Part shown: positions 3,775 to 31,994 of the stretch, in pieces
How positions within the stretch are numbered: position 1 is the first letter of the stretch
Layout: every line of letters starts with the position of its first letter
Assembly (NCBI GenBank): GCA_020056125.1
Contig: JAGVIJ010000066.1
Coordinates: forward strand, 1 to 32,141
Length of the DNA stretch: 32,141 nt
Reading direction: 5' to 3'
Source: a bacterium
GTDB taxonomy: Bacteria > Patescibacteriota > Patescibacteriia > 2-12-FULL-60-25
Translations under genes and position numbers: made by a program
The notes under the pieces: model-generated
Database searches by the model: none
The model's input: the letters and a program-made list of their open reading frames with translations, nothing else
Told to the model about the DNA's origin: nothing

Positions 3775-6312
3775 ATGTCCAATGAATATCATGCGCGCGA
3801 AATCGAGCCCAAATGGCAAAAACAGTGGGAGCAAGATGGGATTTATCATGCGGCTCGAGAATTACCTACCGCGAAAAATGAAGCACCCCCCCGCCATAAG
3901 CGGGGTGGTATCGCGGAATCCGCCGAAGCCATCCGCTCTGCGAAGGCGGACAAAAAATTTTACGGCTTGATTGAATTCCCCTATCCCTCGGGCGAGGGTT
4001 TGCATGTGGGGCATCCGCGTTCATATACGGCCATTGATATTGTGACGCGCAAGCAACGCATGCAAGGGAAAAATGTGCTCTACCCCATGGGCTGGGACGC
4101 CTTTGGTTTGCCCACTGAAAATTTCGCCATCAAACACAAAATCAAACCGCAAGACGCCACGCGGAAAAATATTGCGAACTTCACGCGCCAACTCAAGTCG
4201 CTGGGCTTGGGCTTTGATTGGTCGCGCGAAATCAATACCACTGACCCGGCGTATTATAAATGGACGCAGTGGATGTTTTTACAATTTTTCAAACACGATC
4301 TGGCTTACAAGGCCAAGACTCTGATCAACTGGTGCCCATCGTGCAAAATCGGTCTGGCTAACGAAGAGGCACAAGGCGGAATTTGCGAACGTTGCGGCGG
4401 CACAGTGGAAAAACGCGAAAAGGAACAATGGATGATTGCCATCACCAAATATGCGGATCGCTTACTGTCCGATCTCGACACCGTGGACTATCTGGACAAG
4501 ATCAAAACTCAACAAATCAATTGGATCGGTAAATCCCAAGGTGCCACTATTGATTTCAAAATAAAACCTACTCACTACTCACTACCCACTACTCACTCCA
4601 ACCCGATCCGCGTCTTCACCACACGACCGGACACCTTATTCGGCGCCACGTTCCTGGTAGTATCGCCCGAGCTCGCTAAAACTTGGATGGACGCGGGATG
4701 GAAAGCGCCGCGAGCGGTCAGCGCTTATATCAAATCAGCCCTGAAGCGCACCGAAGAGGATCGCGCTACCACCGACAAAGAAAAAACCGGCGTGGCTTCA
4801 GGTATTGAGGCGGTGAATCCGGCGACCGGCAAACCCATTCCCATTTGGATCGCGGATTATGTGCTGGCGGGTTATGGCACCGGAGCCATCATGGCTGTAC
4901 CGGCGCACGATGAGCGCGATTTTGCATTCGCTAAAAAATTTAAATTGCCGATTGTGCAAGTGGTATCCTCGCCTGAAAATTCTTCAAAAATGACAGCGGC
5001 TTTTACCAGTGAGGGCGTAAATATAAATTCCGATTTTTTGGATGGGCTAGCTACTCCGGAGGCTAAAGAAAAAATGATCAGCTGGTTGCAAAAAGAAAAA
5101 CACGGCGAGCCGGCCGTGACCTACAAACTGCGCGACTGGGTATTTTCGCGCCAGCGTTATTGGGGCGAACCCATTCCGATTATCAACTGCGCCAAGTGCG
5201 GTTATGTGCCGGTGCCGGAAAAAGATTTGCCGGTCAAACTGCCCGAGGTCAAAGCCTACGAACCTACTGACACGGGTGAGTCGCCGCTCGCGGCCATCAA
5301 ATCCTGGGTGGAGGTTAAGTGCCCCAAATGCGGAGCCAAGGCCAAACGCGAAACCGACACCATGCCCAACTGGGCCGGTTCATCGTGGTATTTTTTGCGC
5401 TACTGCGATCCGCAAAATGATCAAACTTTTGCCGCGCCTGAAAAACTCAAATACTGGATGCCGGTTGATCTGTACAACGGCGGCATGGAGCACACCACTT
5501 TGCATCTTTTGTATTCGCGCTTTTGGTACAAATTTTTGTGGGACATCGGCGCCATCCCCAAAGAGTGCGGCGCTGAACCATACCGCATGCGGCGTTCGCA
5601 TGGTCTGATCTTAGGTGGCGGCGGAGTGAAGATGTCCAAGTCCAAAGGCAACGTGATCAATCCGGATGATGTGGTAGCCGAGTATGGCGCTGATGTGTTT
5701 CGCGTGTACGAAATGTTCATCGGGCCGTTTGACCAAGATGCGCCCTGGGACACGCATGGCATCGAAGGAGTAAAACGGTTTTTGGAAAAGGTTTGGCGTC
5801 TCTTCTCTAATTTCCATCTTCCATCTTCCACCTTCCATCTTCCCAATGCGACAGAAACTCTGCTCCATCAAACAATCAAGAAGGTCGGCGAGGATATTGA
5901 TTCATTAAATTTCAACACAGCTGTGTCAGCCCTGATGATCTTAGCCAATGCGTTAGCTGAGTCGGGCGCGGAAAAAATCTCTCGCGACACGGCGGAAATT
6001 TTCTTAAAATTATTGGCGCCTTTTGCTCCACATATCACCGAAGAATTGTGGCGCGGGCTGGGACATAAAGAGACCATCCATTTATCCGAGTGGCCCAAAT
6101 TCAATCCGAAAAAAATCACGGCCGCGACTTTTGAGTTGGTGATTCAAGTCAACGGCAAAGTGCGCGATCGCATTTCCGTCCCCTCCGGCATTTCAGCCAA
6201 AGAGGCGGAACGCCAAGCCTTGGCCTCGGAGAAAGTGCAAGGTTTTTTAGCCGGCAAAAAGCCGCAAAAGATCATCTATGTCCCGGGCAGATTGGTGAGC
6301 ATTTCGGTTTGA
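3775..6312 (+). CDS. leuS: Leucine--tRNA ligase
   Basis: HIGH-region PYPSGEGLHVGHPRSY, KMSKS loop VKMSKSKGN, FTTRPDTLFGATF, and the zinc-type motifs CPSC/CERC and CAKC/CPKC. Length is 845 aa. Confidence 0.97.
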   Translation: MSNEYHAREIEPKWQKQWEQDGIYHAARELPTAKNEAPPRHKRGGIAESAEAIRSAKADKKFYGLIEFPYPSGEGLHVGHPRSYTAIDIVTRKQRMQGKNVLYPMGWDAFGLPTENFAIKHKIKPQDATRKNIANFTRQLKSLGLGFDWSREINTTDPAYYKWTQWMFLQFFKHDLAYKAKTLINWCPSCKIGLANEEAQGGICERCGGTVEKREKEQWMIAITKYADRLLSDLDTVDYLDKIKTQQINWIGKSQGATIDFKIKPTHYSLPTTHSNPIRVFTTRPDTLFGATFLVVSPELAKTWMDAGWKAPRAVSAYIKSALKRTEEDRATTDKEKTGVASGIEAVNPATGKPIPIWIADYVLAGYGTGAIMAVPAHDERDFAFAKKFKLPIVQVVSSPENSSKMTAAFTSEGVNINSDFLDGLATPEAKEKMISWLQKEKHGEPAVTYKLRDWVFSRQRYWGEPIPIINCAKCGYVPVPEKDLPVKLPEVKAYEPTDTGESPLAAIKSWVEVKCPKCGAKAKRETDTMPNWAGSSWYFLRYCDPQNDQTFAAPEKLKYWMPVDLYNGGMEHTTLHLLYSRFWYKFLWDIGAIPKECGAEPYRMRRSHGLILGGGGVKMSKSKGNVINPDDVVAEYGADVFRVYEMFIGPFDQDAPWDTHGIEGVKRFLEKVWRLFSNFHLPSSTFHLPNATETLLHQTIKKVGEDIDSLNFNTAVSALMILANALAESGAEKISRDTAEIFLKLLAPFAPHITEELWRGLGHKETIHLSEWPKFNPKKITAATFELVIQVNGKVRDRISVPSGISAKEAERQALASEKVQGFLAGKKPQKIIYVPGRLVSISV
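3869..3950. repeat. GC-rich double hairpin embedded in frame in the leuS N-terminal region
   Basis: Outer stem ccgcga (3869-3874) pairs with tcgcgg (3911-3916). It encloses ccccgc (3889-3894) pairing with gcgggg (3900-3905). A second hairpin pairs tccgcc (3919-3924) with ggcgga (3945-3950). Confidence 0.55.
4568..4599. repeat. Heptamer array: ctactca ctactca ctaccca ctactca ctcc (in frame in leuS)
   Basis: Read directly from the sequence. There are 4.5 copies of a 7-nt unit, and the third unit carries a T-to-C change. It encodes PTHYSLPTTHS. Confidence 0.9.
5812..5843. repeat. Heptamer array: ttccatc ttccatc ttccacc ttccatc ttcc (in frame in leuS)
   Basis: Read directly from the sequence. 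The architecture matches 4568-4599 (4.5 units, third unit with T-to-C). It encodes FHLPSSTFHLP. Confidence 0.9.
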
Positions 6313-7817: not shown

Positions 7818-7850
7818 AATGCAAAATTAAAAATTCAAAATGCAAAATTA
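7818..7850. repeat. Left arm of an inverted heptamer-array pair: aat gcaaaat taaaaat tcaaaat gcaaaat ta
   Basis: It fills the whole gap between the lexA ATG (7817) and the stop of the four-helix-bundle ORF. It pairs with 8211-8243, with 26 of 33 positions complementary by hand alignment. Confidence 0.85.
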
Positions 7851-8204
7851 GGGTTGCTGATTTTTCACCGTTATCTGGATTTTGGCCATAATGCGTATCA
7901 ATTCCATGGAAAGATCCTCGAGACGGAGCGCAGTTGCCGCATCAAGATAATCCGAATCTTTCAAGAGACGAATCCAATAATTCGCCTCCCGCGCTTCCTT
8001 ATAAGCGATAGCGATTTTGCACACAAAATCTTTCGTTGTGTGGCCGCCAATCGCCTCCTCCACGTTTGCGCCTATGGATGTTCCCGCCCTTAGTAATTGT
8101 TTAGAAAGCACATACTCATTCTTGCGCTCATTCAAATTCTTATAGACCTGAATGACTTCAAGTGCGAATTGGTAGCTTTTGCTACGTAATACATTGTTTT
8201 CCAT
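7848..8204 (-). CDS. Four-helix-bundle protein (TIGR02436 / PF05635, 23S rRNA IVS protein / Avd-like family)
   Basis: MENNVLRSKSYQFALEV...LLRAGTSIGANVEEAIGGHTTKDFVCKIAIAYKEAREANYWIRLL matches the family signature. I place the start at the ATG at 8204. The ORF-track start (8261) would read through the promoter and the repeat arm. Confidence 0.8.
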   Translation of the reverse strand: MENNVLRSKSYQFALEVIQVYKNLNERKNEYVLSKQLLRAGTSIGANVEEAIGGHTTKDFVCKIAIAYKEAREANYWIRLLKDSDYLDAATALRLEDLSMELIRIMAKIQITVKNQQP

Positions 8205-8210
8205 ATCACG

Positions 8211-8244
8211 ATATTTTGCATTTTGCTCTTTGCATTTTGCATTG
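8211..8244. repeat. Right arm of the inverted heptamer-array pair: at attttgc attttgc tctttgc attttgc att
   Basis: Four units plus a partial unit, with the third unit variant. Its reverse complement matches the left arm at 7818-7850. Confidence 0.85.
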
Positions 8245-8249
8245 CCTAT

Positions 8250-8278
8250 ATTATAGAACAAAAGTAGAACACTTTCAA
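8250..8278 (-). promoter_or_regulatory. Sigma70-type promoter TTGAAA-17 nt-TATAAT, with GTTC-N7-GTTC in the spacer (candidate LexA operator)
   Basis: Minus-strand reading is ttgaaa gtGTTCtacttttGTTC tataat. The -35 is at 8273-8278 and the -10 at 8250-8255. The spacer holds a direct repeat, GTTC(7 nt)GTTC. Confidence 0.55.
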
Positions 8279-8366
8279 AATCCCCTGATGTGGATAACTT
8301 TAACGCTCCAAAAACTGGCCGTTGGCTGTTGTTGGCATGACATAAATCATGCTAGGATTTCAATAT

Positions 8367-8501
8367 ATGCCAGCACCGCAACGCATCCGAGAGCTTGTCG
8401 ACACCTTTCATAAAAATTATTGGTATTACCAATCTCTTGAGTACAATGAAGAACAATTGCGCCATGAGTTTTTAAACCCGTTATTTCGGTAACTCGGCTA
8501 G
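8367..8501 (+). pseudogene. N-terminal remnant of a type IIG / Eco57I-like (PglX-like) restriction-modification methyltransferase
   Basis: MPAPQRIRELVDTFHKNYWYYQSLEYNEEQLRHEFLNPLFR*LG*. The family consensus is ...YNE.q.R.eFi.PlF..LGW. TAA (8490) and TAG (8499, where the conserved Trp TGG is expected) interrupt the frame at the expected spacing. Confidence 0.6.
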
Positions 8502-8665
8502 TCTATTATGGTAGAGTCAGGTAAAATAAAATGGATAAGGAAGAAATAGGGTTTATCGCCAGAAAAGTTAGCCCGAAGGCAGGCAAACAGCAGAATTCCA
8601 TCATTGAGTCGCTCAAAGAATCATTAAAGTATTGAATGTGAAAATGGGATTTCAATCAAATAATT

Positions 8666-9676
8666 ATGCCAAATAAAAATGGTAAAAAATTTACTTTTAT
8701 AGATTTATTTGCGGGTATTGGCGGTATACGCATTGCCTTTGAGCGCGCGGGCGGCAAATGTGTTTTTACCTCTGAGTGGGATGCGCCATGCCAAGTCATG
8801 TATGAGGCAAATTTTGGGGATAAGCCGCATGGCGACATAACAAAATTGGTTGCCGAAGAAGTTCCGGATCACGATATTTTAACTGGCGGTTTTCCATGCC
8901 AGGCATTCAGTATTATTGGTAATAAATTAGGGTTTGCAGATACACGCGGGACTTTGTTTTTTGACGTCGAGCGTATTTTGAGGGTGAAACAACCGAAGGC
9001 GTTTTTGTTGGAGAATGTCAAGCAACTTACAACCCATGATAAAGGGAGAACCTTTAAAGCAATTTTGGAAAAATTAGAGAGTTTGGGATATTTTGTGCAT
9101 TATAAAGTGCTGAATGGTCTTGATTTTGGGGTGCCGCAAAGAAGAGAGCGGATCATGCTAGTAGGTTTCAAAAAAAATCATCCTTTTGAATTTCCAAAAC
9201 ATGGGGTGGCGACAAAAACACTTGCTGATATTTTAGAGCCAGATGATGAGGTTGATAAAAAACATTTTTTGAGCGACTATTTTCGTAAAAAGTTGAAAGC
9301 AAAACTTAGGGAACAAAACAAAAAAATTACTCTTCGTCCCGTTATTTTGCATGAGAATAAGGGCGGTAATCTTGGGATACATCAACATTCTTGCGCTCTG
9401 CGCGCCAATGGCTCATATAATTATCTGACTGTAAATGGAGAACGGCGACTTTCGCCACGAGAAATGTTGCGATTACAAGGCTTTCCCGATACATTCAGGA
9501 TTGTTGTGCCGGATACACAGGCAAGGAAACAGGCGGGTAATAGTGTTGTTGTGCCGCAAATTGCGGCCGTGGCATGCGCAATGATACAGGCGATGAACCA
9601 AACTCCGCAAAATAGATTGGCACAAGCGGATTTATTCACAAAGACAATAAAAATAGAAAAAGTATATGCGCACTAA
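8666..9676 (+). CDS. DNA (cytosine-5)-methyltransferase (type II)
   Basis: Motif I FIDLFAGIGG, motif IV GGFPCQAFS, motif VI LLENVKQL, motif VIII QRRERIMLVGF, and motif X GNSVVVP. The conserved blocks closely resemble those of M.HhaI. The target recognition domain differs, so specificity is not assigned. Confidence 0.95.
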   Translation: MPNKNGKKFTFIDLFAGIGGIRIAFERAGGKCVFTSEWDAPCQVMYEANFGDKPHGDITKLVAEEVPDHDILTGGFPCQAFSIIGNKLGFADTRGTLFFDVERILRVKQPKAFLLENVKQLTTHDKGRTFKAILEKLESLGYFVHYKVLNGLDFGVPQRRERIMLVGFKKNHPFEFPKHGVATKTLADILEPDDEVDKKHFLSDYFRKKLKAKLREQNKKITLRPVILHENKGGNLGIHQHSCALRANGSYNYLTVNGERRLSPREMLRLQGFPDTFRIVVPDTQARKQAGNSVVVPQIAAVACAMIQAMNQTPQNRLAQADLFTKTIKIEKVYAH

Positions 9677-10733
9677 ATGTTTTTCAAAATCAGCTTTGGA
9701 TCTGGTGATTCGCAAGTCCCGCGTTCATTTGTACAAACCAATTCAGATTGCTGAAATCCTCCATCGTCACAGGACTGAACGGGGTTGGGATTTAAACGAT
9801 TTGGAATCCTACCGCAATATTTCAAAACGATGGCGGGACGAAGTATCCTCGCTTTTGGTGGGGCGTAGAAGCACATCGAGCCAGAAATATCAGGACAATA
9901 TTTTCGAGGCGAACGCTATGCCACCGGCTCTGCTTGCAGAATTAGGAACGATGAATAAAAAAGGCCAAGGGTTTATTGAAGCGTATGTTTATAAAGCGCT
10001 GGAGGCGCGTCTTTCGTCGGTGAGAGGGGTCGAAGATTATATAAGAAATTCAACCGCAGATACATTCTTAATGAAAGAACTAGTCGCTCTTTTTCAAACC
10101 ACTCCTGGGCTTCGGCGAAGCATAGACAAGATGTATGAAATTTTGGTTTACGCTTTGTTCGATTCAATTGTTCGCGCTTTAAAAGCTCAGATAACTCTAG
10201 AGATTGGAAACAAAGACACGGAAATTTTGAAAGATTTTGAGCGATTTATCAAAATGGTTTTGGGTGTTGATTCAAAACAGACGAAGCTTGTTTTTCCTGC
10301 CGCATTATATCGCGTGGGCGTAACCAATGCCGCGGATAGGGGGTTGGATATGTGGACAAATTTTGGTCCTGCGGTGCAAGTTAAACATCTCACTCTCACA
10401 GCGGAATTGATGGAGGATATAGCAGATAATATCACTGCTGATAAAATTGTTATTGCCTGCATTGATACAGAAAAAGATGCAATCGAGTCATTGTTAAAAC
10501 AGGTTGGCTGGAGCGAAAGGATACAAGGAATTATTACTATCACTGACTTGGATGAGTGGTATAAACTTTGTTTGAGCAAAAAATACCGCGGCAATCTTGG
10601 CGAAAAATTACTCCAAAATATTGGACGAGAATTTGCCGCAGAATTTCCGTCAAGCAAAGAAATCGCGCCTTTTATGGCGAGGCGGGGGTACGATAAAATC
10701 ATTATGCCGCATGATTGGCAAATCCAAATTTGA
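9666..10733 (+). CDS. Putative type II restriction endonuclease, partner of the 5mC methyltransferase
   Basis: Its start overlaps the methyltransferase stop by 11 nt, and it is followed by vsr. A possible PD-(D/E)xK-like element is GLDMWTNFGPAVQVK. The family was not identified by eye. Confidence 0.5.
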   Translation: MRTKCFSKSALDLVIRKSRVHLYKPIQIAEILHRHRTERGWDLNDLESYRNISKRWRDEVSSLLVGRRSTSSQKYQDNIFEANAMPPALLAELGTMNKKGQGFIEAYVYKALEARLSSVRGVEDYIRNSTADTFLMKELVALFQTTPGLRRSIDKMYEILVYALFDSIVRALKAQITLEIGNKDTEILKDFERFIKMVLGVDSKQTKLVFPAALYRVGVTNAADRGLDMWTNFGPAVQVKHLTLTAELMEDIADNITADKIVIACIDTEKDAIESLLKQVGWSERIQGIITITDLDEWYKLCLSKKYRGNLGEKLLQNIGREFAAEFPSSKEIAPFMARRGYDKIIMPHDWQIQI

Positions 10734-10740
10734 TTTATGT

Positions 10741-11139
10741 ATGGACACTGTCTCGAAACAGAAACGGAGCGAAATAATGTCTCGGATAAAAAGCCGAGAC
10801 AGTAAAATTGAGACATTATTTCGTAAAGAACTTTGGAACCGCGGTTTTCGTTATCGCAAAAACTCCGGCAAATACTTCGGCAAGCCGGATATTGTTTTGA
10901 AACGGCATAAAGCAGTCATTTTTATTGATTCTTGTTTTTGGCACGGGTGCAAAAAACATTGTCGGATTCCGTCTCTTCACAAGAATTATTGGACACAAAA
11001 AATTGTTAGAAATATTGCGCGAGATAAAGAAGTTTCTATGCACTATAAAAAGCAAGGATGGAAAATTTTTAGAATATGGGAGCACGAAATTAAAAAGGAT
11101 GCAGCGGCGATTATTAAAAAAATTGGTCTCAGAGCCTAG
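10741..11139 (+). CDS. vsr: Very short patch repair endonuclease
   Basis: KRSEIMSRIKSRDSKIE...GKPDIVL...AVIFIDSCFWHGC...YWTQKI.RN..RD...GWKIFRIWEHE matches the Vsr signature. The start is taken at the ATG at 10741, not the upstream ORF-track start. Confidence 0.9.
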   Translation: MDTVSKQKRSEIMSRIKSRDSKIETLFRKELWNRGFRYRKNSGKYFGKPDIVLKRHKAVIFIDSCFWHGCKKHCRIPSLHKNYWTQKIVRNIARDKEVSMHYKKQGWKIFRIWEHEIKKDAAAIIKKIGLRA

Positions 11140-11192
11140 AAATTGGAATTTAATATTTGTGAATTTTTTTAAAATTTAATTCTTTATAGTAA

Positions 11193-11273
11193 GAGCGAAT
11201 AAATTACTTGGCCTATAAACTCTACGGCCTAACCGAGGACGAAATTAAAATTGTGGAGGAAGGGGTGAAATAA
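11193..11273 (+). pseudogene. C-terminal remnant of a type IIG/Eco57I-like or TaqI-like N6-methyltransferase
   Basis: The open frame ERINYLAYKLYGLTEDEIKIVEEGVK* is the characteristic C-terminal tail (..LYGLTeEEI.iiE) of this enzyme class. No upstream body is present. Confidence 0.5.
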
Positions 11274-11381
11274 ATTTTAAATTTTATGGATCGTTGTTCA
11301 TCTTTATTTTTCGCTTTTATGGGAGCTGGTATTAATCAGATACAACCGTTAAAGACAGGGGGTGGTTTTGAGGTGTGGCGC

Positions 11382-12392
11382 ATGCAAAAAAAATTGGATG
11401 ATTTTATTGAAGAAGTCCGAAAAAAAATTCCACCGGTAAATGACAATGCCCTTGGTAATTATCATATCGGCCATCCAGTAACAAAATTTGCCCAAAACGA
11501 AATTGATGAAGAATATTTTTCAAACGTCTCGTGGGGTCTGTTAATTCCGTGCTCAATGGAACTGGGCAAAAATGTAGTAATGTCTATTGTTGATTTATTT
11601 TCGACACGGTTTTTATATCCTTTGTTTGTCGTGGATGACATGAGTATTGAGAAGATGAAAACCAAGAGGGAGCTATGGATGTCTTTAGTAACACAAACCC
11701 AACAAGAAGTTTTTAAGAATGAATATTTTTCTCGATTCTATATTTTTTTAGAACCGATGGCTACATATGTGAATTTGGAAGAGTCAAAACGAAAATCTTG
11801 GGACAAGGAAGACTGGCGCCTGGTAGCGGCGTGGCACACATTTTGTGAATTACGGGACTACGATGACGGGAAAAATATTATTGGTTGGCAACGGGAAGCC
11901 TCGGAAATTACAGTGATTCTTGAATCATTATTGACTGCAGAAGACGCAACGCAGAATGAGGTCGGTTACCGTTTGAGAAAGCGGGCGGCTACATTAGTGG
12001 GTGACTTTTTTCCTGAAATAGAAAAAAATATAAAAAAACTTTACGATAAACGTTGCTCGTTCGTGCATGGTTCTTTTTTTGCCGAAGCTGCTAAACAGGC
12101 AAAGAAAAGTGAAGACGGTTTCCCCCTACCAGATATGGCGGAATTTGATTTTCTGGAATCACAAATTGAAGTCGCGAGGTTTGTTTTGGTAGCCTGTTTG
12201 ATTCTTTCAGAGGCTACTAGAGCAAACAAATTTGACGGATATACTAAATACATGGATGTCTTAGAAGACTCCATTATTAACGTCGACATGAGAAGACGAG
12301 TAAATGAATTAGTCAATCCGGTATTATCCTTGATGCCAAAAATCCAACCTATACAAGGGAGAACTATGGTGCGAGGAGAAGATAAAAAATAA
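11382..12392 (+). CDS. Hypothetical protein with a candidate C-terminal HEPN domain (Rx4H motif)
   Basis: GAGG lies 7 nt upstream of the ATG at 11382; the ORF track starts at 11286. The C-terminal region VILESLL...YRLRKRAATLV...KKLYDKRCSFVHGS carries R-x4-H (12051-12068), as in Apea-like and Abi-type HEPN domains. Confidence 0.45.
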   Translation: MQKKLDDFIEEVRKKIPPVNDNALGNYHIGHPVTKFAQNEIDEEYFSNVSWGLLIPCSMELGKNVVMSIVDLFSTRFLYPLFVVDDMSIEKMKTKRELWMSLVTQTQQEVFKNEYFSRFYIFLEPMATYVNLEESKRKSWDKEDWRLVAAWHTFCELRDYDDGKNIIGWQREASEITVILESLLTAEDATQNEVGYRLRKRAATLVGDFFPEIEKNIKKLYDKRCSFVHGSFFAEAAKQAKKSEDGFPLPDMAEFDFLESQIEVARFVLVACLILSEATRANKFDGYTKYMDVLEDSIINVDMRRRVNELVNPVLSLMPKIQPIQGRTMVRGEDKK

Positions 12393-12414
12393 TTCAATCA
12401 ATAAATTATTCAAT

Positions 12415-12654
12415 ATGCCCTCACAAAATACACCGATGGAATTACACGTTACTCCACACGGCATTTATGATGGGAGTGCTCGTCTGCCATATAGCTGGAA
12501 AAACATAGATCAGCTATTTAACCAGCTACTAGATCAAGGACATGAGATTAAACTCGAACCATTCGACAATTTCACGGAATCAAAGTGCCCAGATGAATTT
12601 GCGATATTGCAAAAAATAATTGATAATTCGGACGGTAAAATTAAGTGGGGTTAA
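12415..12654 (+). CDS. Hypothetical small protein (79 aa)
   Basis: ORF only. It lies 22 nt downstream of the HEPN-candidate gene on the same strand. No recognisable motif or SD sequence. Confidence 0.4.
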   Translation: MPSQNTPMELHVTPHGIYDGSARLPYSWKNIDQLFNQLLDQGHEIKLEPFDNFTESKCPDEFAILQKIIDNSDGKIKWG

Positions 12655-12663
12655 GGTATCGTA

Positions 12664-12993
12664 TTACTTATCATTAAATTCCTGGGGAGTTGCTGATTGT
12701 TTGCCCAGGTCGATCAACCTATCTGTCCACTCTTTATTTTCTGCTGTTCTGATATAGTGCTGCCCTGTTGGAGTCGCGGCACCAAAAATATAAATATTGT
12801 CACCCGTCGTTAGATCCTTAATATAAGCCTTCCCGTTTTTATTCTCAATCCAATCATACATACTTTCACGGGTGGCCTCCCCAGCCTGTTGAGTTTGCTC
12901 ATTAAGCCAAACAAAGCTTTGCATCGCCAAATGAGCCTCAAGCTTATTAACTGGAAGATTTTCTGGTTTCACCTTGGTGATTCTTATTGCCAT
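12664..12993 (-). CDS. DUF3892-like small protein
   Basis: The pattern IRITKV...H...W...AYIKD...GQHYIRTAENKEWTDRLIDL resembles the DUF3892 consensus (..YirT..D....dNLl.L). This was recognised by eye only. Confidence 0.45.
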   Translation of the reverse strand: MAIRITKVKPENLPVNKLEAHLAMQSFVWLNEQTQQAGEATRESMYDWIENKNGKAYIKDLTTGDNIYIFGAATPTGQHYIRTAENKEWTDRLIDLGKQSATPQEFNDK

Positions 12994-13024
12994 ATTGTTT
13001 CGTATCGTATATTAGCATGAAAAT

Positions 13025-13594
13025 CTAAAATAGATGATACCATTTTCTTTCGGCTATTTCCGTTAATTTAGTTGATGTAGGAGTTTTAAAAACGCTCTCA
13101 ATAACTCCGGAGATACTTTCAATAAGTTCCTTGGCTGGCCCAGGGATACTGCCTGTATCAATTTGGCTAGCGGTAGCTGGCTTATTCGGATCAGCTGGTT
13201 CAAGGACATCTCTGTTATGTCGATCGGAAATCGTTTTTAGTACATCATCCAAATACGCAGCGTTGGAATAGAATACACTAATCAGATCAAGTTCTGTTTC
13301 TTTTAAATCTTTAACAAAAAGTCCGATATTAGCGTTCCAGCTATTAGTCGGTAGTATTTTTTCAGTAAAGGTATAAGAATGATGAACTCGATAATTTCTT
13401 ATCTTAGCTTCTGCATAACGGATTTCTTGGAGCACGAGCTTGGCTGCATCGCTTTTCCGATCCTTTTTTTGAAAGCGATAAATAAAAAATACAAACACGC
13501 CCACAACCAGAGTCACCGTTCCCTGATGATTATCTATATTCCACAAAACCTTGCTCAGATAATCATCAAATCGAGTTATTAGCCACATGATCAT
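13025..13594 (-). CDS. Hypothetical single-pass membrane protein
   Basis: Start is taken at the ATG at 13594 (MIMWLITRF...). The TM helix is GTVTLVVGVFVFFIY, followed by RFQKKDRK. The ORF-track GTG start at 13669 would include the conserved upstream motif. The stop lies 31 nt from the DUF3892-like gene. Confidence 0.55.
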   Translation of the reverse strand: MIMWLITRFDDYLSKVLWNIDNHQGTVTLVVGVFVFFIYRFQKKDRKSDAAKLVLQEIRYAEAKIRNYRVHHSYTFTEKILPTNSWNANIGLFVKDLKETELDLISVFYSNAAYLDDVLKTISDRHNRDVLEPADPNKPATASQIDTGSIPGPAKELIESISGVIESVFKTPTSTKLTEIAERKWYHLF

Positions 13595-13644
13595 AACGAC
13601 GAACAGTCTATGTTCTTGGACGCTCCTAGTCAATGGCAGTGTCC

Positions 13645-13670
13645 CAATAAAAATAGGAAACCGGGACACA
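13645..13670 (-). promoter_or_regulatory. Conserved 26-nt upstream motif, copy A
   Basis: aggaaaccgggacacaacccgtttaa matches 14573-14598 at 21 of 26 positions. It ends 50 nt upstream of the ATG at 13594. Confidence 0.4.
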
Positions 13671-13824
13671 ACCCGTTTAAATCAAAGCGCATCATGATTT
13701 TTTTGACTCTGAACAGCCAATTTTATCCCCAAGCGTTGTTTTGATATTTAACTCTATTTAGAGCTTCTAGCAAGTTAGCGCTTGCTTGTTATTACTAACT
13801 TATGATATTGTCAGAGTGGAATTG

Positions 13825-13889
13825 TCCCCAATCTGAATTGTGGCGTTTATCGCCGCGTTTCCTTCGGGAATAGGATTGGGGATTTTTTT
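13825..13889 (+). terminator. Structured element with a T-run: multi-hairpin terminator or small RNA 3' end
   Basis: Outer stem tccccaatc (13825-13833) pairs with gattgggga (13874-13882). It encloses hairpins ggcg-tttat-cgcc and ttcc-ttcg-ggaa, and is followed by ttttttt. The orientation fits only plus-strand transcripts, yet both neighbouring genes are on the minus strand. Confidence 0.4.
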
Positions 13890-13891
13890 AA

Positions 13892-14524
13892 TTATTTGGG
13901 CCAGATTTGGACGAAAATCTCCCGATGAGCAATGATCCTCCGATAATCATCCGACCGTTTTTTCTGTTGTCGCACGGATCTATTTATAACTCCGGCAATA
14001 TAATCTGCCAGCTGTAAGAGGTTGTTGGCTGAAGAATTTTGTATCTTAACTTTTTTAATCAAACAATGGTCGGCATCGTTCATGTGTCGCTTTAAATATC
14101 TACTCAACTGATCGCGAAAGTCATTATTGCCGCTTCGATCTATGACGACCGTGGCATCATGCAATTTCTCTTTGGCATTCTCAAAGACCAGACGGCAAGC
14201 GTATTTATAAAATGATTCCTTATTCCGAAAGCCCTCCCCGTACAATCTTTCAGGATCTTTATTAATGACAATGCCATAATAAAAGAAATTGTACGGCGAA
14301 ACAGCTTTTAGGAATGTACTGCGTACAAGGTGTGAATTTCGACGAAAATGAAATTCACCGTTCAGTTCCCAGCCGATTTCTCGACGAAGAAGATTAATGC
14401 GCTGATCGCAGGCGACAGCATCATCGTTATCTTCAAAGACAACTAAAGAAACCGTAAAATATTGGCTTGATCCTCGATCAAGCCTTAAGCCGGGGTCACC
14501 GGATTCGTCAATGAAAACAAGCAT
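13892..14524 (-). CDS. DUF3800 domain-containing protein
   Basis: N-terminal MLVFIDESGD and C-terminal LLQLADYIAGVI are the two hallmark DUF3800 motifs. Confidence 0.8.
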   Translation of the reverse strand: MLVFIDESGDPGLRLDRGSSQYFTVSLVVFEDNDDAVACDQRINLLRREIGWELNGEFHFRRNSHLVRSTFLKAVSPYNFFYYGIVINKDPERLYGEGFRNKESFYKYACRLVFENAKEKLHDATVVIDRSGNNDFRDQLSRYLKRHMNDADHCLIKKVKIQNSSANNLLQLADYIAGVINRSVRQQKKRSDDYRRIIAHREIFVQIWPK

Positions 14525-17972: not shown

Positions 17973-18533
17973 ATGCGAAAAGAACCCACGCTGTATGACG
18001 TAATAGATGTCATACAAACCACATCAGAAAAAATCGATACGCGATTCGACGAGACTAATTCCAAAATTAATGGTTTAGAAAAGTCACTCACCTCAAAAAT
18101 TGGATCGTTGGATTCAAAGATTGATGGGGTTGAGAAATCGCTTAACGTCAAAATTGACAGCGTCGCTAAAGACACCCATCAACGCATAGACGACGTTATT
18201 GAGATAATGAATGTTTTCGCCTCTAACGTGGATCAACGATTCGAAAAAGTAGATCAGCGATTCGATACGGTGGATCAACGATTCGAAAAAGTAGATCAGC
18301 GATTCGATACGGTGGATCAACGATTCGAAAAAGTAGATCAGCGATTCGACACGATGGTCACTAAAAATTACCTGGACAACACTATATCGGATCTGCGTGC
18401 AGATCTGGTGCTCTTAACCAGAAAGGGAAATTTTAAATTCTCGGTGCTGGTTGAGGATTTGGTTGAGACAGGTTCGCTCTCGCGCAAAGCCGCCAAACAA
18501 ATTCTGGCTCTCGAACCCTTTCCGCAAAAATAA
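17973..18533 (+). CDS. Coiled-coil repeat protein (DxRF-type heptad-like repeats)
   Basis: Repetitive KIDTRFDE..KINGLEKSL..KIGSLDSKIDGVEKSL.. followed by three copies of VDQRFEKVDQRFDT. No catalytic motif is seen. Confidence 0.65.
   Translation: MRKEPTLYDVIDVIQTTSEKIDTRFDETNSKINGLEKSLTSKIGSLDSKIDGVEKSLNVKIDSVAKDTHQRIDDVIEIMNVFASNVDQRFEKVDQRFDTVDQRFEKVDQRFDTVDQRFEKVDQRFDTMVTKNYLDNTISDLRADLVLLTRKGNFKFSVLVEDLVETGSLSRKAAKQILALEPFPQK
18228..18353. repeat. Tandem 42-nt repeat x3 (gtggatcaacgattcgaaaaagtagatcagcgattcgatacg)
   Basis: Units lie at 18228-18269, 18270-18311 and 18312-18353. The third unit has one substitution. Confidence 0.9.
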
Positions 18534-18557: not shown

Positions 18558-18592
18558 TAAAAATCCTCCTGACATTTGTCCGGAGGATTTTT
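18558..18592 (+). terminator. Rho-independent terminator
   Basis: aaatcctcc (18561-18569) pairs with ggaggattt (18582-18590), followed by a T-run. Confidence 0.7.
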
Positions 18593-18660
18593 CGGAATAG
18601 TGCGACCGAAATTCTTGATATTTATAATTCTTTCTGATAGTCTCTTGGGCAACGGTATCT

Positions 18661-18735
18661 GCGGGTATCGTATAGCGGTTATTATGCCACCTTGCCAAGG
18701 TGGAGAGGGGGGTTCAATTCCCCCTACCCGCTCCA
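18661..18735 (+). tRNA. tRNA-Gly(GCC)
   Basis: Acceptor gcgggta/tacccgc, anticodon arm ccacc-ttGCCaa-ggtgg, T-arm gggg-ttcaatt-cccc, and an encoded CCA. Confidence 0.9.
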
Positions 18736-18738
18736 TAG

Positions 18739-18767
18739 AAAACGTCCTCGTGAAACGAGGACGTTTT
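18739..18767 (+). terminator. Rho-independent terminator after tRNA-Gly
   Basis: A perfect 12-bp stem pairs aaaacgtcctcg with cgaggacgtttt across a 5-nt loop. Confidence 0.8.
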
Positions 18768-18800
18768 GGCATCTTGGTTTCGTGTTATCATATCCCAAGT

Positions 18801-20567
18801 ATGACCAAAATACGCAACGCGCAAGAGCTGGAAAAAATCTTTCTGGAATACGCTTATTACTACGCGGCTCAGGGCGTGCCTTTTAAGCCGCGCGCTTATG
18901 AACTGGCTTCAGAGGCCATGTCCGCTCTGGGCAATGAGGTCAAAGAAGTTTGGGTACAAGGCGGCATCAAAGAGCTCAAAAATCTCCCGGGCATCGGCCA
19001 ATCCACAGCCGAAAAAATTGACGAGTACTTCCGCACGGGCAAAGTCGCGGAATACGAAAAAATTAAAAAAGAATTTCCGGTTGATATTTGGGGACTCTCC
19101 CGCATCGAAGGTCTAGGTCCAAAACATATCGCTGAGCTCTATCAGCACTTGAAGGTAAAAAACATGGCTGATCTCAAAGCCGCGCTCAAGGCTCATAAAC
19201 TGCAAACCATTCCGCGCTGGGGCGAAAAAAGCGAAGAGAAAATTTTGCGCAGCCTGAGCATGTTGGAGCAATCCGCCGGACGCAAACTTTTAGGTTACGC
19301 TTTGCCCCTAGCTGAAGATATCGTGGAACGCATTTCGCAAGTCAAAGGCGTTAAGCGCTGCGTGTACGCCGGCTCTTTGCGCCGTCGCCAAGAAACCATC
19401 GGCGATGTGGATCTGTTTGCCACAACCAGCAACCCGCCAGCTGTCATGGATGCGTTTGTGAAAATGCCACAGGTGGCTAGCGTGCATGAGCAAGGCCGTA
19501 CCCGCGCTTCGGTGCGACTCACAAACGGCATGGACGCTGATTTGCGCGTGGTTCCGGACAAAGTTTTCGGCGCCACGCTCCAATATTTCACGGGCAACAA
19601 ACGTCACAATGTTTTGCTCCGGCAATATGCTCTATCCAAAGGCTACACCTTGAGTGAATACGGATTATTTCGGCTGGCTAAAAAAGGCAGTAAGAAAAAA
19701 GGAGAGCTTGTGGCCTGTGAAACTGAAGAGGAAATCTATGAGCGCCTGGGCATGGATACTCCGCCGCCTGAATTGCGCGTGGGTGAAGATGAAATTGAGG
19801 CCGCGCTCAAACATCAACTCCCCAATCTCATTCCGTATGGTTCAGTCAAAGGCGACCTGCAAGTGCAAAGCGATTGGACCGATGGTTCAGCGTCCATCGA
19901 AGACATGGCGCGCGCGACCCAAGCGCTCGGCCTCTCCTACATGGCCGTAACCGATCACACCAAAGCCCTGGCATTTTTAGGCGGACTCAATGATTCAAAG
20001 GTGATCAAGCAAGGCAAAGAGATTGACCGGCTGAATAAAAAATTGCACGGCTTTAAAATTTTAAAAGGTACTGAATGCGATATCAAAAAAGATGGCACAC
20101 TAGACCTAACGGATAAAACCTTGGCCAAGTTAGACTGGGTGGGCGTGTCAGTCCACTCCAGTTTTAAACTATCTCGTGCCGAACAGACCGCGCGCTTGCT
20201 CAAGGCGCTGGCTAATCCAAATGTGGATTGTTTATTCCACCCCACTTGCCGCATCATCGGTAAACGCGAACCCATTGATTTTGACCTGGACGAAATCCTA
20301 GCGGCCGCTAAAAAATATCAGGTCGCGCTGGAAATTGACGCTTTTCCGGATCGCTCGGATTTGCGCGATGTGCATGTGCGCGCCGCCATCCGCGCCGGAG
20401 TGAAAATCGTGATTGATACGGACGCGCACAGTCCGGAACACCTAAAATTTATTCCTCTGGGCGAGGCCATTGCGCGCCGCGGCTGGGCCACCAAAGCCGA
20501 TGTTCTAAACACCAAATCCGTGAGCGACCTACTCGCCTATCTTGCTAAAAAGAAAAAAATGCGCTAA
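18801..20567 (+). CDS. polX: DNA polymerase/3'-5' exonuclease PolX (family X polymerase with PHP domain)
   Basis: HhH motifs (LPGIGQSTAEKI, IEGLGPKHI), Pol-beta nucleotidyltransferase motif GSLRRRQETIGDVDL, and C-terminal PHP motifs (AVTDHT, SVHSSF, DTDAH). The start is at the ATG at 18801. The ORF-track ORF from 18576 reads through tRNA-Gly. Confidence 0.9.
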   Translation: MTKIRNAQELEKIFLEYAYYYAAQGVPFKPRAYELASEAMSALGNEVKEVWVQGGIKELKNLPGIGQSTAEKIDEYFRTGKVAEYEKIKKEFPVDIWGLSRIEGLGPKHIAELYQHLKVKNMADLKAALKAHKLQTIPRWGEKSEEKILRSLSMLEQSAGRKLLGYALPLAEDIVERISQVKGVKRCVYAGSLRRRQETIGDVDLFATTSNPPAVMDAFVKMPQVASVHEQGRTRASVRLTNGMDADLRVVPDKVFGATLQYFTGNKRHNVLLRQYALSKGYTLSEYGLFRLAKKGSKKKGELVACETEEEIYERLGMDTPPPELRVGEDEIEAALKHQLPNLIPYGSVKGDLQVQSDWTDGSASIEDMARATQALGLSYMAVTDHTKALAFLGGLNDSKVIKQGKEIDRLNKKLHGFKILKGTECDIKKDGTLDLTDKTLAKLDWVGVSVHSSFKLSRAEQTARLLKALANPNVDCLFHPTCRIIGKREPIDFDLDEILAAAKKYQVALEIDAFPDRSDLRDVHVRAAIRAGVKIVIDTDAHSPEHLKFIPLGEAIARRGWATKADVLNTKSVSDLLAYLAKKKKMR

Positions 20568-24665: not shown

Positions 24666-24711
24666 TTCAATGCCAAATGGCATATTGCTAAAACCGAATT
24701 TCCAGGCGCGA

Positions 24712-24739
24712 AATTCGACATTCGATATTCGAAATTCGT
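24712..24739. repeat. Heptamer array: aattcga cattcga tattcga aattcgt
   Basis: Four 7-nt units. The array ends 8 nt upstream of the ATG at 24748. Confidence 0.85.
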
Positions 24740-25544: not shown

Positions 25545-25553
25545 CAAATTTTT

Positions 25554-29326: not shown

Positions 29327-29354
29327 AACTCGAAATTCGATATTCGATATTCGT
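29327..29354. repeat. Heptamer array: aactcga aattcga tattcga tattcgt
   Basis: Four 7-nt units. It is a near copy of 24712-24739 in the same orientation, and ends 5 nt upstream of the pdaD ATG. Confidence 0.85.
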
Positions 29355-29902: not shown

Positions 29903-29935
29903 CCCAGGTGGTAGATTTTTAAATCCGGCTAAACT

Positions 29936-31168
29936 GTGTTGCGCTTAATTTTGATTCTTTTACCGCTCGTTCTGCCGACTTATGTCGTGCGTTTTAAAGT
30001 CGGTTCTCTGCCCACCACGCTGTTGGAAATTTTTGTATTTCTTTTCCTCGCAGTCTGGACATACCAACGCGGCATTAAAGGATGGAAAAACGGATGTGCG
30101 CAACTCTGCTCGCAAAAATGGCTTTGGCCGCTGGCCGCGTGGCTGGTTGTTGGCGCCCTGGGAATTTTCATTGCGCCTGATCACTTGGCTGCGCTCGGCT
30201 TGTGGCGCGCTTATTTTTTAGAACCGATTTTGATCTTTGTCCTGTTGGCTGACCTGATTAAAACAGATGGCGACAAACGTTTACTCATCCGCTCTTTAAT
30301 CTTCATCAATATTTTTGTGGCGCTCTGGGCCGCATTCCAATTTTTCACCGGATTGGGAATCCCCTCGCCTTGGAACGCGCTACCGGCCGGTATCCGCGCC
30401 ACCGGGCCATTCCCTTATCCCAATGCTCTGGCTCTGTTTGCGGTTCCCATCTCCGCCCTCTGCTTCTACCTTGCAATGCAATGTCAAACCATTCGATATT
30501 CGAAATTCGCCTGCCTTGCCGGCAGGCAGGATATTCGAAATTCGATATTGTGGCTTGGATTCCTAAGCGGCCTGGCCGCGACCCTGCTAGCCAAAAGCGA
30601 TGGCGGCTTAATCGCGCTCATAGCCGCAGTCTTGATCACTCTGATCCTCAAACGCCGCACCAGACTCCCGGCTATCATCATAGCCATACTCATCGGAATT
30701 TTACTTTGCTCTATTCCAGTTGTGCGCAACACCGTCTCACAAAAAATATTTTTTAAAGATTGGTCAGGTCAAGTGCGTCTGGTCATGTGGCAGGAGACAG
30801 CCGCCATGTTAAAAAACCGACCCATTTTCGGCGCCGGACTGGGTGCGTATCCTGATGTCATCCAACCCTATCACCAAGCAACGTGGATGGAGATCTTTCA
30901 ATATCCGCACAACATTCTTTTGAATCTTTGGTCAGAGGTTGGCTTGCTCGGCATACTGGCTTTCACCTGGTTGCTCGTCCTCTGGATTAAACGCGGCGGA
31001 CTGATCGCATTGCCCATCCTGGCCGCGCTCTTGATTCAGGGTTTAGTGGATGTGCCTTATTTCAAAAACGACCTGGCCATTTTATTTTGGATTTTAATGG
31101 CCGTGACTCTTTCAGCGCACAAAATTACGGCTGGAGAATATCCTCGGTGCGACCATCAATCGAAATAA
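29936..31168 (+). CDS. O-antigen ligase family (Wzy_C) membrane protein
   Basis: Multi-TM protein. The Wzy_C-like core is LLAKSDGGLIALIAAV...GAGLGAY...YPHNILLNLWSEVGLLG. The GTG/TTG start is approximate. Confidence 0.75.
   Translation: MLRLILILLPLVLPTYVVRFKVGSLPTTLLEIFVFLFLAVWTYQRGIKGWKNGCAQLCSQKWLWPLAAWLVVGALGIFIAPDHLAALGLWRAYFLEPILIFVLLADLIKTDGDKRLLIRSLIFINIFVALWAAFQFFTGLGIPSPWNALPAGIRATGPFPYPNALALFAVPISALCFYLAMQCQTIRYSKFACLAGRQDIRNSILWLGFLSGLAATLLAKSDGGLIALIAAVLITLILKRRTRLPAIIIAILIGILLCSIPVVRNTVSQKIFFKDWSGQVRLVMWQETAAMLKNRPIFGAGLGAYPDVIQPYHQATWMEIFQYPHNILLNLWSEVGLLGILAFTWLLVLWIKRGGLIALPILAALLIQGLVDVPYFKNDLAILFWILMAVTLSAHKITAGEYPRCDHQSK
30490..30552. repeat. Composite insert: 3 heptamers (cattcga tattcga aattcgc), a hairpin (ctgcc..ggcag), then 3 heptamers (tattcga aattcga tattgtg), in frame in the ligase gene
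   Basis: Read directly from the sequence. It is 63 nt (21 codons) and translates as IRYSKFACLAGRQDIRNSILW. The central cctgcct/aggcagg stem has 7 bp. Confidence 0.85.
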
Positions 31169-31696: not shown

Positions 31697-31754
31697 ATAA
31701 AGCCATCTTAATCCAACTCGCTTGGAAAGTGAAGCGCTCCCGCATAAAAACAAT

Positions 31755-31890
31755 CTCCCCCTTAGGTTAAGGGGGAGCACGAGGGGGTTAGCCTAAATGA
31801 TTGTAAGGTGTGGGTTCTAACCCCTCCACCCTCCCCCGTAGAGGGGCGTGGCCCCACGGGGCTTTACGCCCTTAATCTAAGGGGAGGAAT
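31755..31890. repeat. GC-rich multi-hairpin region (C-run/G-run clamp hairpins)
   Basis: Hairpins are ctccccctta-ggt-taagggggag, gagggggttag...ctaacccctc, ggcgt-ggccccacggggcttt-acgcc, and ccctta-atc-taaggg. ccaccctcccc is shared, inverted, with 245-255. Confidence 0.55.
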
Positions 31891-31994
31891 GGATAGCATG
31901 TTAATGTTAAAATGTGGGTTAGATGCCTGAACTTGATTTTTTCTTAAAAATCAGCTACTTTGCTCTCACTCAATCGCTTATTCCGCAATATCGT

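Follow-up and report, generated by a model that had tools for sequence, protein, structure and literature searches.

How does a short run of simple repeats with a hairpin come to lie, translated, inside a gene for a membrane protein? The question is raised by contig JAGVIJ010000066.1, whose 32,141 nucleotides (nt) were analysed as a whole (hereafter the window). Its gene for a Wzy_C / O-antigen-ligase-like protein carries a 63-nt insert composed of tandem 7-nt units (heptamers) and a 21-nt palindromic hairpin. The initial annotation had read the insert as one arm-hairpin-arm unit, plausibly a miniature version or excision footprint of an array-flanked class that would include a four-helix-bundle cassette of the same contig. 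We found that the 63 nt is a composite of two kinds of repetitive DNA. It probably arose when a tiny palindromic mobile element entered a heptamer repeat that was already there, giving an insert that is translated and tolerated. The best named protein relatives of the contig belong to Candidatus Uhrbacteria and to metagenome-assembled genomes of Patescibacteria, indicating a Patescibacteria (Uhrbacteria-like) genome.

Results

A hairpin splits one heptamer array

The insert consists of the hairpin between two stretches of the heptamer ATTCGAW (Table 1). When the 21-mer was deleted in silico, the two stretches closed up into a perfect, in-phase, alternating array of 42 nt, (ATTCGAT ATTCGAA)x3, or six units, indicating that the arms are one direct-repeat array in two pieces and not terminal repeats. 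The arms are direct and not inverted repeats, and their partial pairing is due to the palindromes TTCGAA and ATCGAT. In the window the 21-mer occurs once, against 0.01 occurrences expected. None of the six frames of the array, the hairpin or the entire 63 nt contains a stop codon.

These results agree with the sequence of arms and hairpin that had been noted within 30490-30552, and with its 7-bp stem and its 21 in-frame codons. The hairpin is, however, 21 nt and not 20 nt long, one C of the loop having been dropped, and the codon register runs from 30491 to 30553.

The 21-mer is dispersed across bacterial phyla

We scanned a 596-Gb collection of species-representative genomes, from which all totals are lower bounds. 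The exact 21-mer was present in at least 119 stretches, compared with about 0.3 expected by our own estimate (2 x 596e9 / 4^21). Among the matches listed, the hosts were more than 100 bacterial species of about ten phyla, including many Patescibacteria classes, Bacteroidota, Ignavibacteria, Omnitrophota, Gammaproteobacteria, Planctomycetota, Nitrospirota, Spirochaetia, Margulisiibacteriota and Bdellovibrionales. Seven cultured Bacteroidota isolates were among them (Arenibacter, Hyunsoonleella, Marinoscillum, Aequorivita, Croceitalea, Winogradskyella and Flagellimonas), and no cyanobacterial host of the 21-mer family appeared among the record titles listed. The assemblies came from many laboratories and from short reads as well as long reads, and the sequences flanking the copies were unrelated, save for a bias at the adjoining positions.

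The contig is metagenome-assembled, and repeats and palindromes are hard to assemble, as would suit an artefact of assembly or sequencing. Nevertheless, the reading frame is kept, the identical contig is found in two sources, and the same 21-mer recurs in isolates and in both kinds of assembly from many laboratories. A loop evolved in place by slippage, with a hairpin arisen by chance, is excluded by the number of exact copies given above. We regard either origin as extremely improbable.

Next, the loop was left free (CCTGCCT-N7-AGGCAGG). An NNCCGGY loop was found in 79 of about 129 matches listed, the loops among these matches including GTCCGGT (23), GTCCGGC (16), the TGCCGGC of the window (10), CGCCGGC (8) and others. 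The family consensus, CCTGCCT-NNCCGGY-AGGCAGG, amounts to a perfect 20-nt palindrome, CCTGCCTGCCGGCAGGCAGG, plus one base. The perfect 20-mer has the same host taxa as the 21-mer and was present in at least 120 stretches, often as a 22-nt palindrome with A...T flanks. Furthermore, degenerate copies lay near exact 21-mers, and one of them (in L114) showed a compensatory change in the stem (C5>T / G17>A).

The exact 21-mer was also found on at least seven viral contigs, and the wider family in at least 55 viral-contig stretches; this is suggestive of phages as a vector of the 21-mer but not decisive. We found no published description of the 21-mer, the 20-mer, their variants or the six peptides that they encode, the comparison not extending to the sequences of the cyanobacterial repeats SDR1-8 discussed below. 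Two viral contigs were densely colonised, IMGVR_UViG_3300038551_000082 (L561, L564, L572, L594) with nine copies in 28.8 kb and IMGVR_UViG_3300025106_000007 (L204, L599) with six copies in 30.8 kb; the copies on such contigs include nested and tandem ones and lie mostly within open reading frames (ORFs).

Insertion into genes, arrays and copies of itself

The leucyl-tRNA synthetase (LeuRS) gene of a Komeilibacteria genome (L073) holds two hairpin copies in opposite orientations. Compared with the LeuRS of the window (50% identity), its C-terminal copy corresponds to an exact seven-residue gap (HQESIF[LPCRQAG]KQSWP versus HKETIH-------LSEWP), indicating a clean 21-nt insertion with neither duplication nor deletion.

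We found that 67 of 124 copies of the 21-mer lay within ORFs of at least 150 amino acids (aa). The frames of these 67 copies were used unequally, with 35 reading LPAGKAG, 11 PALPAGR, 8 CLAGRQ as in the window, 6 CLPARQ, 4 LPCRQAG and 3 PACRQGR (chi-square p 1e-12). The dominance of two cysteine-free frames is as expected if protein-level selection filters insertions. The perfect 20-mer lay within long ORFs in only 15% of cases, versus about half for the 21-mer, which is the pattern expected if the palindromes insert at any place but are retained in genes only when their length keeps the frame.

A pyrimidine (C or T) stood at position +1 in 123 of 133 copies, and 24% of copies were preceded by TC; positions -1 and +1 carried the identical base in only 51 of the 133. 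Nine of the 133 copies adjoined a heptamer array of at least three units, compared with 0.16% of background positions (p 1.7e-12), an enrichment of about 40-fold. The units beside these nine copies vary (CAATTTC, CGAAATC, TCAAATC, CAAAGTC, CACTTTC, TAATTTC and others), and in each of the nine the 21-mer, as written, is on the C-rich array strand. Thus, the array-hairpin-array form is seen again in various phyla, the hairpin being constant and the arrays not. Further units of this form, which the initial annotation had suggested looking for, were found with other array units; by inspection, none of 130 ATTCGAW arrays listed from other genomes had a hairpin beside it. In addition, nine of 398 family copies were nested in another copy, which they split at positions 8-15, that is, in the loop or centre, and adjacent head-to-head and tandem copies were present.

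Towards the N-terminus, the LeuRS of the window has about 20 extra residues, NEAPPRHKRGGIAESAEAIRSAKADK (3856-3950, about residues 28-59), whose DNA contains other small palindromes (CCCCGCCATAAGCGGGG and TCCGCC...GGCGGA). The L073 enzyme has the 21-nt hairpin (LPAGKAG) at the matching spot, and the two genes seem to share a hot spot here for palindromic inserts of different kinds.

We also considered that the hairpin or the whole insert acts at the RNA level, either through mini-intron-like removal or as a pause, stability or processing signal in the transcript. The 83-nt region folds strongly relative to shuffled sequence, the folding energy being -18 kcal/mol for DNA (z -3.7) and -32.6 kcal/mol for RNA (z -4.5). 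Some of the extra pairing is due to two hexamers in the array units, TTCGAA and ATCGAT, which are palindromic. The invariance of the stem sequence across phyla would also fit such a role, and the study of cyanobacterial SDRs reportedly proposed RNA-mediated movement. On the other hand, the hairpin stands in both orientations within genes, even within one gene (the LeuRS of L073), its use of frames resembles protein-level filtering, which would imply translation, and the depletion of the frame-breaking 20-mer in ORFs is unexpected under splicing. No Rfam family matched at the insert site at either gathering or lax thresholds. Together, these observations make an RNA-level element unlikely. Nor does the hairpin resemble an intrinsic terminator, as it lies in the middle of an ORF and is followed by ATATTCG, and TT makes up the next two bases in only 19 of 133 copies. 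A programmed -1 frameshift signal, a slippery heptamer followed by a hairpin, was rejected as well, since by eye there is no X XXY YYZ site ahead of the hairpin.

Two tRNA-like sequences bear on the same question. In L450 (4042-4061) and L472 (2127-2146), the 20-nt palindrome lies in a tRNA-like 5' half, after GCTCAGTCGGTTAGA (L450; GGTTAGA) and GCTCAGTGGTAGA (L472; GGTAGA), respectively, and the GC that follows it is the 3' strand of the D stem. If these genes were functional, the palindrome would need to be removed. ARAGORN did not call either sequence as a tRNA, however, and both look truncated. They may represent pseudogenes or tRNAs with introns, or may hint at RNA-level removal.

In the closest relative the hairpin lies elsewhere

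The nearest relative available is a syntenic contig (L001), whose Wzy protein is 78% identical to that of the window and whose DNA is 83.6% identical over 6.8 kb. We found that the insertions and deletions of at least 6 nt between the two contigs are heptamer arrays with or without the hairpin, a Gmad2-like gene and its vicinity excepted. Array and hairpin content differs at four sites (Table 1), and the hairpin is reciprocal, being present in the Wzy loop of the window only and in the spacer between Wzy and the pyruvoyl-dependent arginine decarboxylase gene (PvlArgDC) of L001 only. In a metagenome scan for closer alleles, no Wzy relative above 60% identity was detected, and the sole cluster mate was the identical contig, deposited twice; neither yielded a presence/absence polymorphism of the insert. 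Judging by these alignments, heptamer arrays appear to turn over quickly, with relatives carrying other units or none at matching sites, and the hairpin would be the mobile part and the array its target.

Table 1. Position and content of the insert, its host gene and related sites in the window and in the closest relative.
Feature	Position in window	Strand	Content in window	Content in L001	Basis
Wzy_C / O-antigen-ligase-like polytopic membrane protein	29936..31168	+	410 aa, intact		Pfam PF04932, E 1.3e-22
63-nt insert	30491-30553	+	21 in-frame codons, residues I186-W206, peptide IRYSKFACLAGRQDIRNSILW		Direct reading of sequence
Left part of interrupted heptamer array	30491..30509	+	ATTCGAT ATTCGAA ATTCG		In phase with right part once 30510-30530 is removed
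21-nt palindromic hairpin	30510..30530	+	CCTGCCTTGCCGGCAGGCAGG; CCTGCCT / TGCCGGC / AGGCAGG; 7-bp stem, 7-nt loop TGCCGGC		Translated (A)CLAGRQ(D)
Right part of array	30531..30553	+	AT ATTCGAA ATTCGAT ATTGTGG, final unit degenerate		Direct reading
ATTCGAW heptamer array, intergenic after ruvB	24709..24738	+	4.3 units, no hairpin, 10 nt upstream of ATG 24749		TRF, 14-mer matches
ATTCGAW heptamer array before PvlArgDC	29330..29353	+	3.4 units, no hairpin, 6 nt upstream of start codon 29360		TRF, 14-mer matches
Wzy loop			ATTCGAW array + hairpin	CTACTCA CTACCCA CTACCAC CTACCCA (CTACYCA type), no hairpin	
Upstream of PvlArgDC start			TCGAAAT TCGATAT TCGATAT	CTACTCA CTACTAA CTACTCA	
PvlArgDC-Wzy spacer	29903..29913	+	Only CCCAGGTGGTA, ~1.4 units of TAGGTGG, near-empty	TAGGTTG TAGGTGG (same 21-nt hairpin, opposite orientation) TAGCGAG TAGGTGG TAGTTCG; five units, +47 nt	Alignment A4
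Between two convergent genes	25545-25553		Nothing	517-577: inverted CTACTCA-type arrays around 20 nt	

At 517-577, L001 reads TGAGTAG GTGGTAG TGGGTAG ... CTACTCA CTACTAA CTACCAA CTACTCA; these inverted arrays could fold into a long hairpin resembling a bidirectional terminator. In the window, 190 nt at 31736-31925 are absent from L001 and contain other palindromic repeats, such as CTCCCCCTTAGGTTAAGGGGGAG (about 31756-31778) and CCCCGTAGAGGGGCGTGGCCCCACGGGGC.

Heptamer arrays occur without the hairpin

The 14-mer ATATTCGAAATTCG, with at most two mismatches, matched the window seven times against 0.68 expected. All matches were on the + strand, at 24711-24738, at 29333-29353 and in both arms of the insert. 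Tandem Repeats Finder (TRF) reported period 7 at 24709, 29330 and 30491, among several period-7 arrays in the window. The arms therefore do share their unit family with the two arrays that had been placed at 24712 and 29327. The ATTCGAW unit stands at these three loci in at least three head-to-tail copies, with arrays in intergenic positions near starts, as in heptanucleotide arrays. Arrays of the same unit cluster locally, with three ATTCGAW sites within 6 kb in the window; in L001, arrays of the CTACTCA type stand at several places in about 5 kb. In other genomes, ATTCGAW arrays of at least three units were found in at least 120 stretches from many phyla.

Such clustering suggests local spread of arrays and, together with the unit family shared by the arms and two nearby arrays, would be compatible with the 63 nt being one arm-hairpin-arm unit, either a non-autonomous miniature or the footprint of an excision, of the class to which the four-helix-bundle cassette belongs. 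The cassette meant is probably the 23S_rRNA_IVP (S23p-family) gene of the window, which is indeed flanked by arrays, and in other genomes (L222, L218, L320 and L324) inverted ATTCGAA arrays surround short sequences. However, the arrays of the 23S_rRNA_IVP gene are inverted and of a different unit (GCAAAAT/ATTTTGC), a geometry unlike that of the insert, whose direct, in-phase arms are those of one split array. ATTCGAW arrays stand without a hairpin at 24709 and 29330, and none of the 130 listed from other genomes adjoins one. Conversely, over 100 other genomes contain the hairpin, either between unrelated flanks or with heptamer arrays of other units; most of its copies lie away from heptamer arrays, and the adjoining units vary by genome. 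Finally, L001 has another array and no hairpin at the same Wzy site, and has the hairpin at a site where the window lacks it. Thus, the involvement of a small mobile element, as first proposed, is upheld, but it is very unlikely that arms and hairpin form a single unit, a miniature or a footprint.

The 23S_rRNA_IVP gene lies at about 7848-8204 on the - strand, between GCAAAAT-type x4 at about 7821-7848 and ATTTTGC x4 at 8213-8240. In the 428-nt 23S intervening sequence of Coxiella, tandem GACAGAT heptamers are located just upstream of the S23p ORF (PMC4990558).

At 7821, 8213, 11271, 14688, 24709 and 29330, period-7 (or -8) arrays end about 0-10 nt before a start codon. These leader arrays occupy the position expected for a ribosome-binding site and resemble the TAACTGA repeats of Beggiatoaceae. 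In previous studies, TAACTGA repeats were reported immediately before start codons in Beggiatoaceae and in some cyanobacteria and Bacteroidetes, and the heptanucleotide type, an unexplained class, was the most abundant among the long simple repeats of most bacterial genomes surveyed (PMC4679880, PMC4692102).

Arrays are also translated elsewhere in the window. LeuRS (3775-6312) holds two in-frame arrays, CTACTCA x4.3 (4568-4597) and TTCCATC x4.6 (5812-5843), which, compared with the LeuRS of L073, substitute for segments of near-equal length and add no length. At 18228-18357 (ORF 17973-18533), a 42-nt unit repeated 3.1 times with 97% identity encodes VDQRFEKVDQRFDT heptads, and its DNA includes CGATTCGAAA and CGATTCGATA, which are similar to the ATTCGAW unit.

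The insert lies in a tolerated loop of the host protein

The Wzy_C gene has about 2000 homologues, mostly in Patescibacteria, and the window copy retains the invariant residues. Its neighbours, by Pfam, are a polysaccharide flippase-like gene, PvlArgDC, a SpoIID-domain protein gene and ruvB. An alignment of 30 Wzy_C sequences placed the insert, as had been noted, in a length-variable loop directly before the conserved AKSDGGLIAL core. The insertion itself was confirmed by the same orthologues, as the two conserved motifs that flank it are 26-34 aa apart in the shortest orthologues and 41 aa apart in L001, compared with 50 aa in the window, consistent with about 21 additional residues in the window loop.

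In an AlphaFold2 model (mean pLDDT 82.6, pTM 0.86), residues 186-201 are non-helical and join helices 162-185 and 202-218, with pLDDT below 50 at 189-198. The native loops of orthologues are rich in K and R, which by the positive-inside rule suggests that the insert-bearing loop, a short one, is probably cytoplasmic. Other heptamer units occupy the same loop in orthologues from L001, L121, L127, L131 and L137, and possibly L161. For the gene, the practical meaning of the insert is modest: the loop is a tolerated one, and the analysis gave no sign of gene regulation by the insert, which would be neutral or slightly deleterious. In the variable loops or tails of four orthologues (P0010, P0022, P0024 and P0027; alignment A1), we observed stretches such as IPAFAGMT, VIPAQAGIQ and SSLRRQGSSLDRLGW. 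These look like translated copies of other palindromic repeat families, and in-frame repeat insertions seem common in Wzy proteins.

Slippage of the 7-nt repeat might turn a surface-polysaccharide gene on and off, since the unit is not a multiple of three and O-antigen ligases or polymerases are a class typical of contingency loci; in Haemophilus, phase variation is reported to be driven by heptanucleotide repeats (PMC8262952). The arms of the insert, however, have only about 2.7 units each, the units alternate, so that the effective period is 14, and the hairpin breaks the tract; similar arrays lie inside the essential LeuRS of the window. Moreover, the frame is intact in this loop in all aligned Wzy orthologues, with no frame-shifted loop among them. 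A phase-variation switch appears highly improbable.

Discussion

A possible route to the composite insert

The composite reading would be explained if the heptamer array was present first and the hairpin landed near its centre, where the partly palindromic array might itself extrude a hairpin. The 21-nt element may move at the DNA level, likely through single-stranded or hairpin-extruding DNA, because it stands in both orientations within single genes, leaves no target duplication and prefers slippage- or hairpin-prone DNA and its own loop. Its preferred targets are heptamer arrays, sites with a 3' pyrimidine and the loops of other copies of itself. The most plausible agent would be an enzyme acting in trans, of the single-strand HUH type or otherwise sequence-specific. 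Being seven codons long and free of stops in all six frames, the element could persist in genes, with protein-level selection filtering which insertions remain.

Several points weigh against this reading. The Wzy of L001 is only 78% identical and carries a different array, so we infer the order of array first and hairpin second. As 21 is 3 x 7, a hairpin added to the array and a hairpin replacing three of its units look alike. Larger inverted repeats surrounded the hairpin in 12 of 132 copies versus 5.3% (p 0.048), which is marginal, and the idea of a hairpin loop as target draws mainly on self-nesting. Identity across phyla could mirror conserved function instead of mobility. Lastly, none of the 29 window ORFs scanned with Pfam encodes a transposase, a RAYT (Y1 transposase) or a reverse transcriptase, which would leave the mobilising enzyme to be supplied in trans.

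More broadly, we tentatively suggest, with rather more doubt than for the composite origin of the 63 nt, that the 21-mer is a member of a pan-bacterial, hitherto undescribed family of palindromes, 20-22 nt long, that share the core CCTGCCTGCCGGCAGGCAGG. These would be the smallest known mobile elements, crossing phyla, occurring on phage contigs as well, inserting cleanly into single-stranded or hairpin-prone DNA and leaving 7-residue peptides in essential proteins such as LeuRS. As the stem sequence is constant between phyla, movement would require recognition of the sequence itself by an enzyme that is either shared widely or co-transferred. If the family is mobile, 21 nt would suffice for spread and for the crossing of phyla, which raises the question of the enzyme that recognises it. 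Such a family would explain odd 7-residue inserts, LPAGKAG, PALPAGR and CLAGRQ among them, as well as loops derived from repeats, in proteins of Patescibacteria, Bacteroidota and further phyla, and inserts of this kind can mislead alignment, annotation and structure prediction. The hairpin may also serve as a marker of recent change, as its presence differs between close relatives at two sites. In addition, it would connect the heptanucleotide repeats, long noted but unexplained, with a second class of repeats beyond cyanobacteria, a connection that can be tested in the cultured Flavobacteriia with copies.

Comparison with known repeats

The closest analogues of the 21-mer appear to be the cyanobacterial SDRs, by behaviour, and the Rickettsia palindromic elements (RPEs). 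Elhai's 2008 study of SDR1-8 in Nostoc punctiforme and relatives reportedly described hairpins of 21-27 nt with compensatory changes, often in heptameric repeats, self-nested and non-coding. It is said to have proposed them as the smallest mobile elements and to have found them essentially confined to one cyanobacterial subgroup. Compared with this description by behaviour, the 21-mer is alike in its 21 nt, its 7-bp stem, its at least 119 copies, the compensatory change in L114, its residence in heptamer arrays (9/133) and its nesting in its own copies (9/398). It differs in that its family spans about ten phyla and not one cyanobacterial subgroup, and in-frame residence in conserved genes is prominent. 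Whereas an RNA intermediate was reportedly proposed for SDRs, the 21-mer stands in both orientations within one gene, favouring DNA.

RPEs are selfish palindromic DNA, are about 100-150 bp long, belong to one genus and form translated inserts at tolerated sites in unrelated genes, including housekeeping genes (PMC10969869). The 21-mer is likewise palindromic and in frame within protein genes, but it is only 21 nt long, uses all six frames, encodes no single conserved peptide and resides in other phyla.

REP and REPIN sequences are short (20-40 nt), GC-rich, imperfect palindromes that are extragenic, lineage-specific, tagged by GTAG/CGTC and mobilised by RAYT (PMC3116915, PMC3733652). The 21-mer resembles them as a short GC-rich palindrome with many copies and as a candidate for single-stranded mobilisation by an HUH enzyme in trans. 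In contrast to them, it lacks the GTAG/CGTC tag, is genic about half the time (67/124) and has the same sequence across phyla, and the 29 window ORFs scanned include no RAYT. Miniature inverted-repeat transposable elements have terminal inverted repeats, target-site duplications and lengths of about 50-500 bp, unlike the 21 nt of this element, which shows no duplication in the LeuRS comparison.

The arrays resemble known heptanucleotide repeats, such as the cyanobacterial STRR, long simple repeats and the Beggiatoaceae TAACTGA repeats (MacGregor 2015, PMC4679880), in having few tandem 7-nt units at many dispersed loci, in their concentration directly upstream of starts and in their patchy occurrence across phyla. 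Unlike these known repeats, those of the window genome comprise several unit families, include in-frame genic arrays and differ in unit at orthologous sites.

Other features of the window

Positions 8000-14000 form a low-GC island (0.39-0.41 versus about 0.50) with genes for a C5-methylase, a HaeII-type restriction enzyme, a Vsr mismatch endonuclease and a DUF3800 protein. A DUF3800-IX RNA at 13824-13887 accompanies the DUF3800 protein in this island, which was probably acquired horizontally. In addition, Rfam detected a tRNA at 18661-18732 inside the listed ORF 18576-20567, a PolX-like gene, whose true start probably lies downstream of the tRNA.

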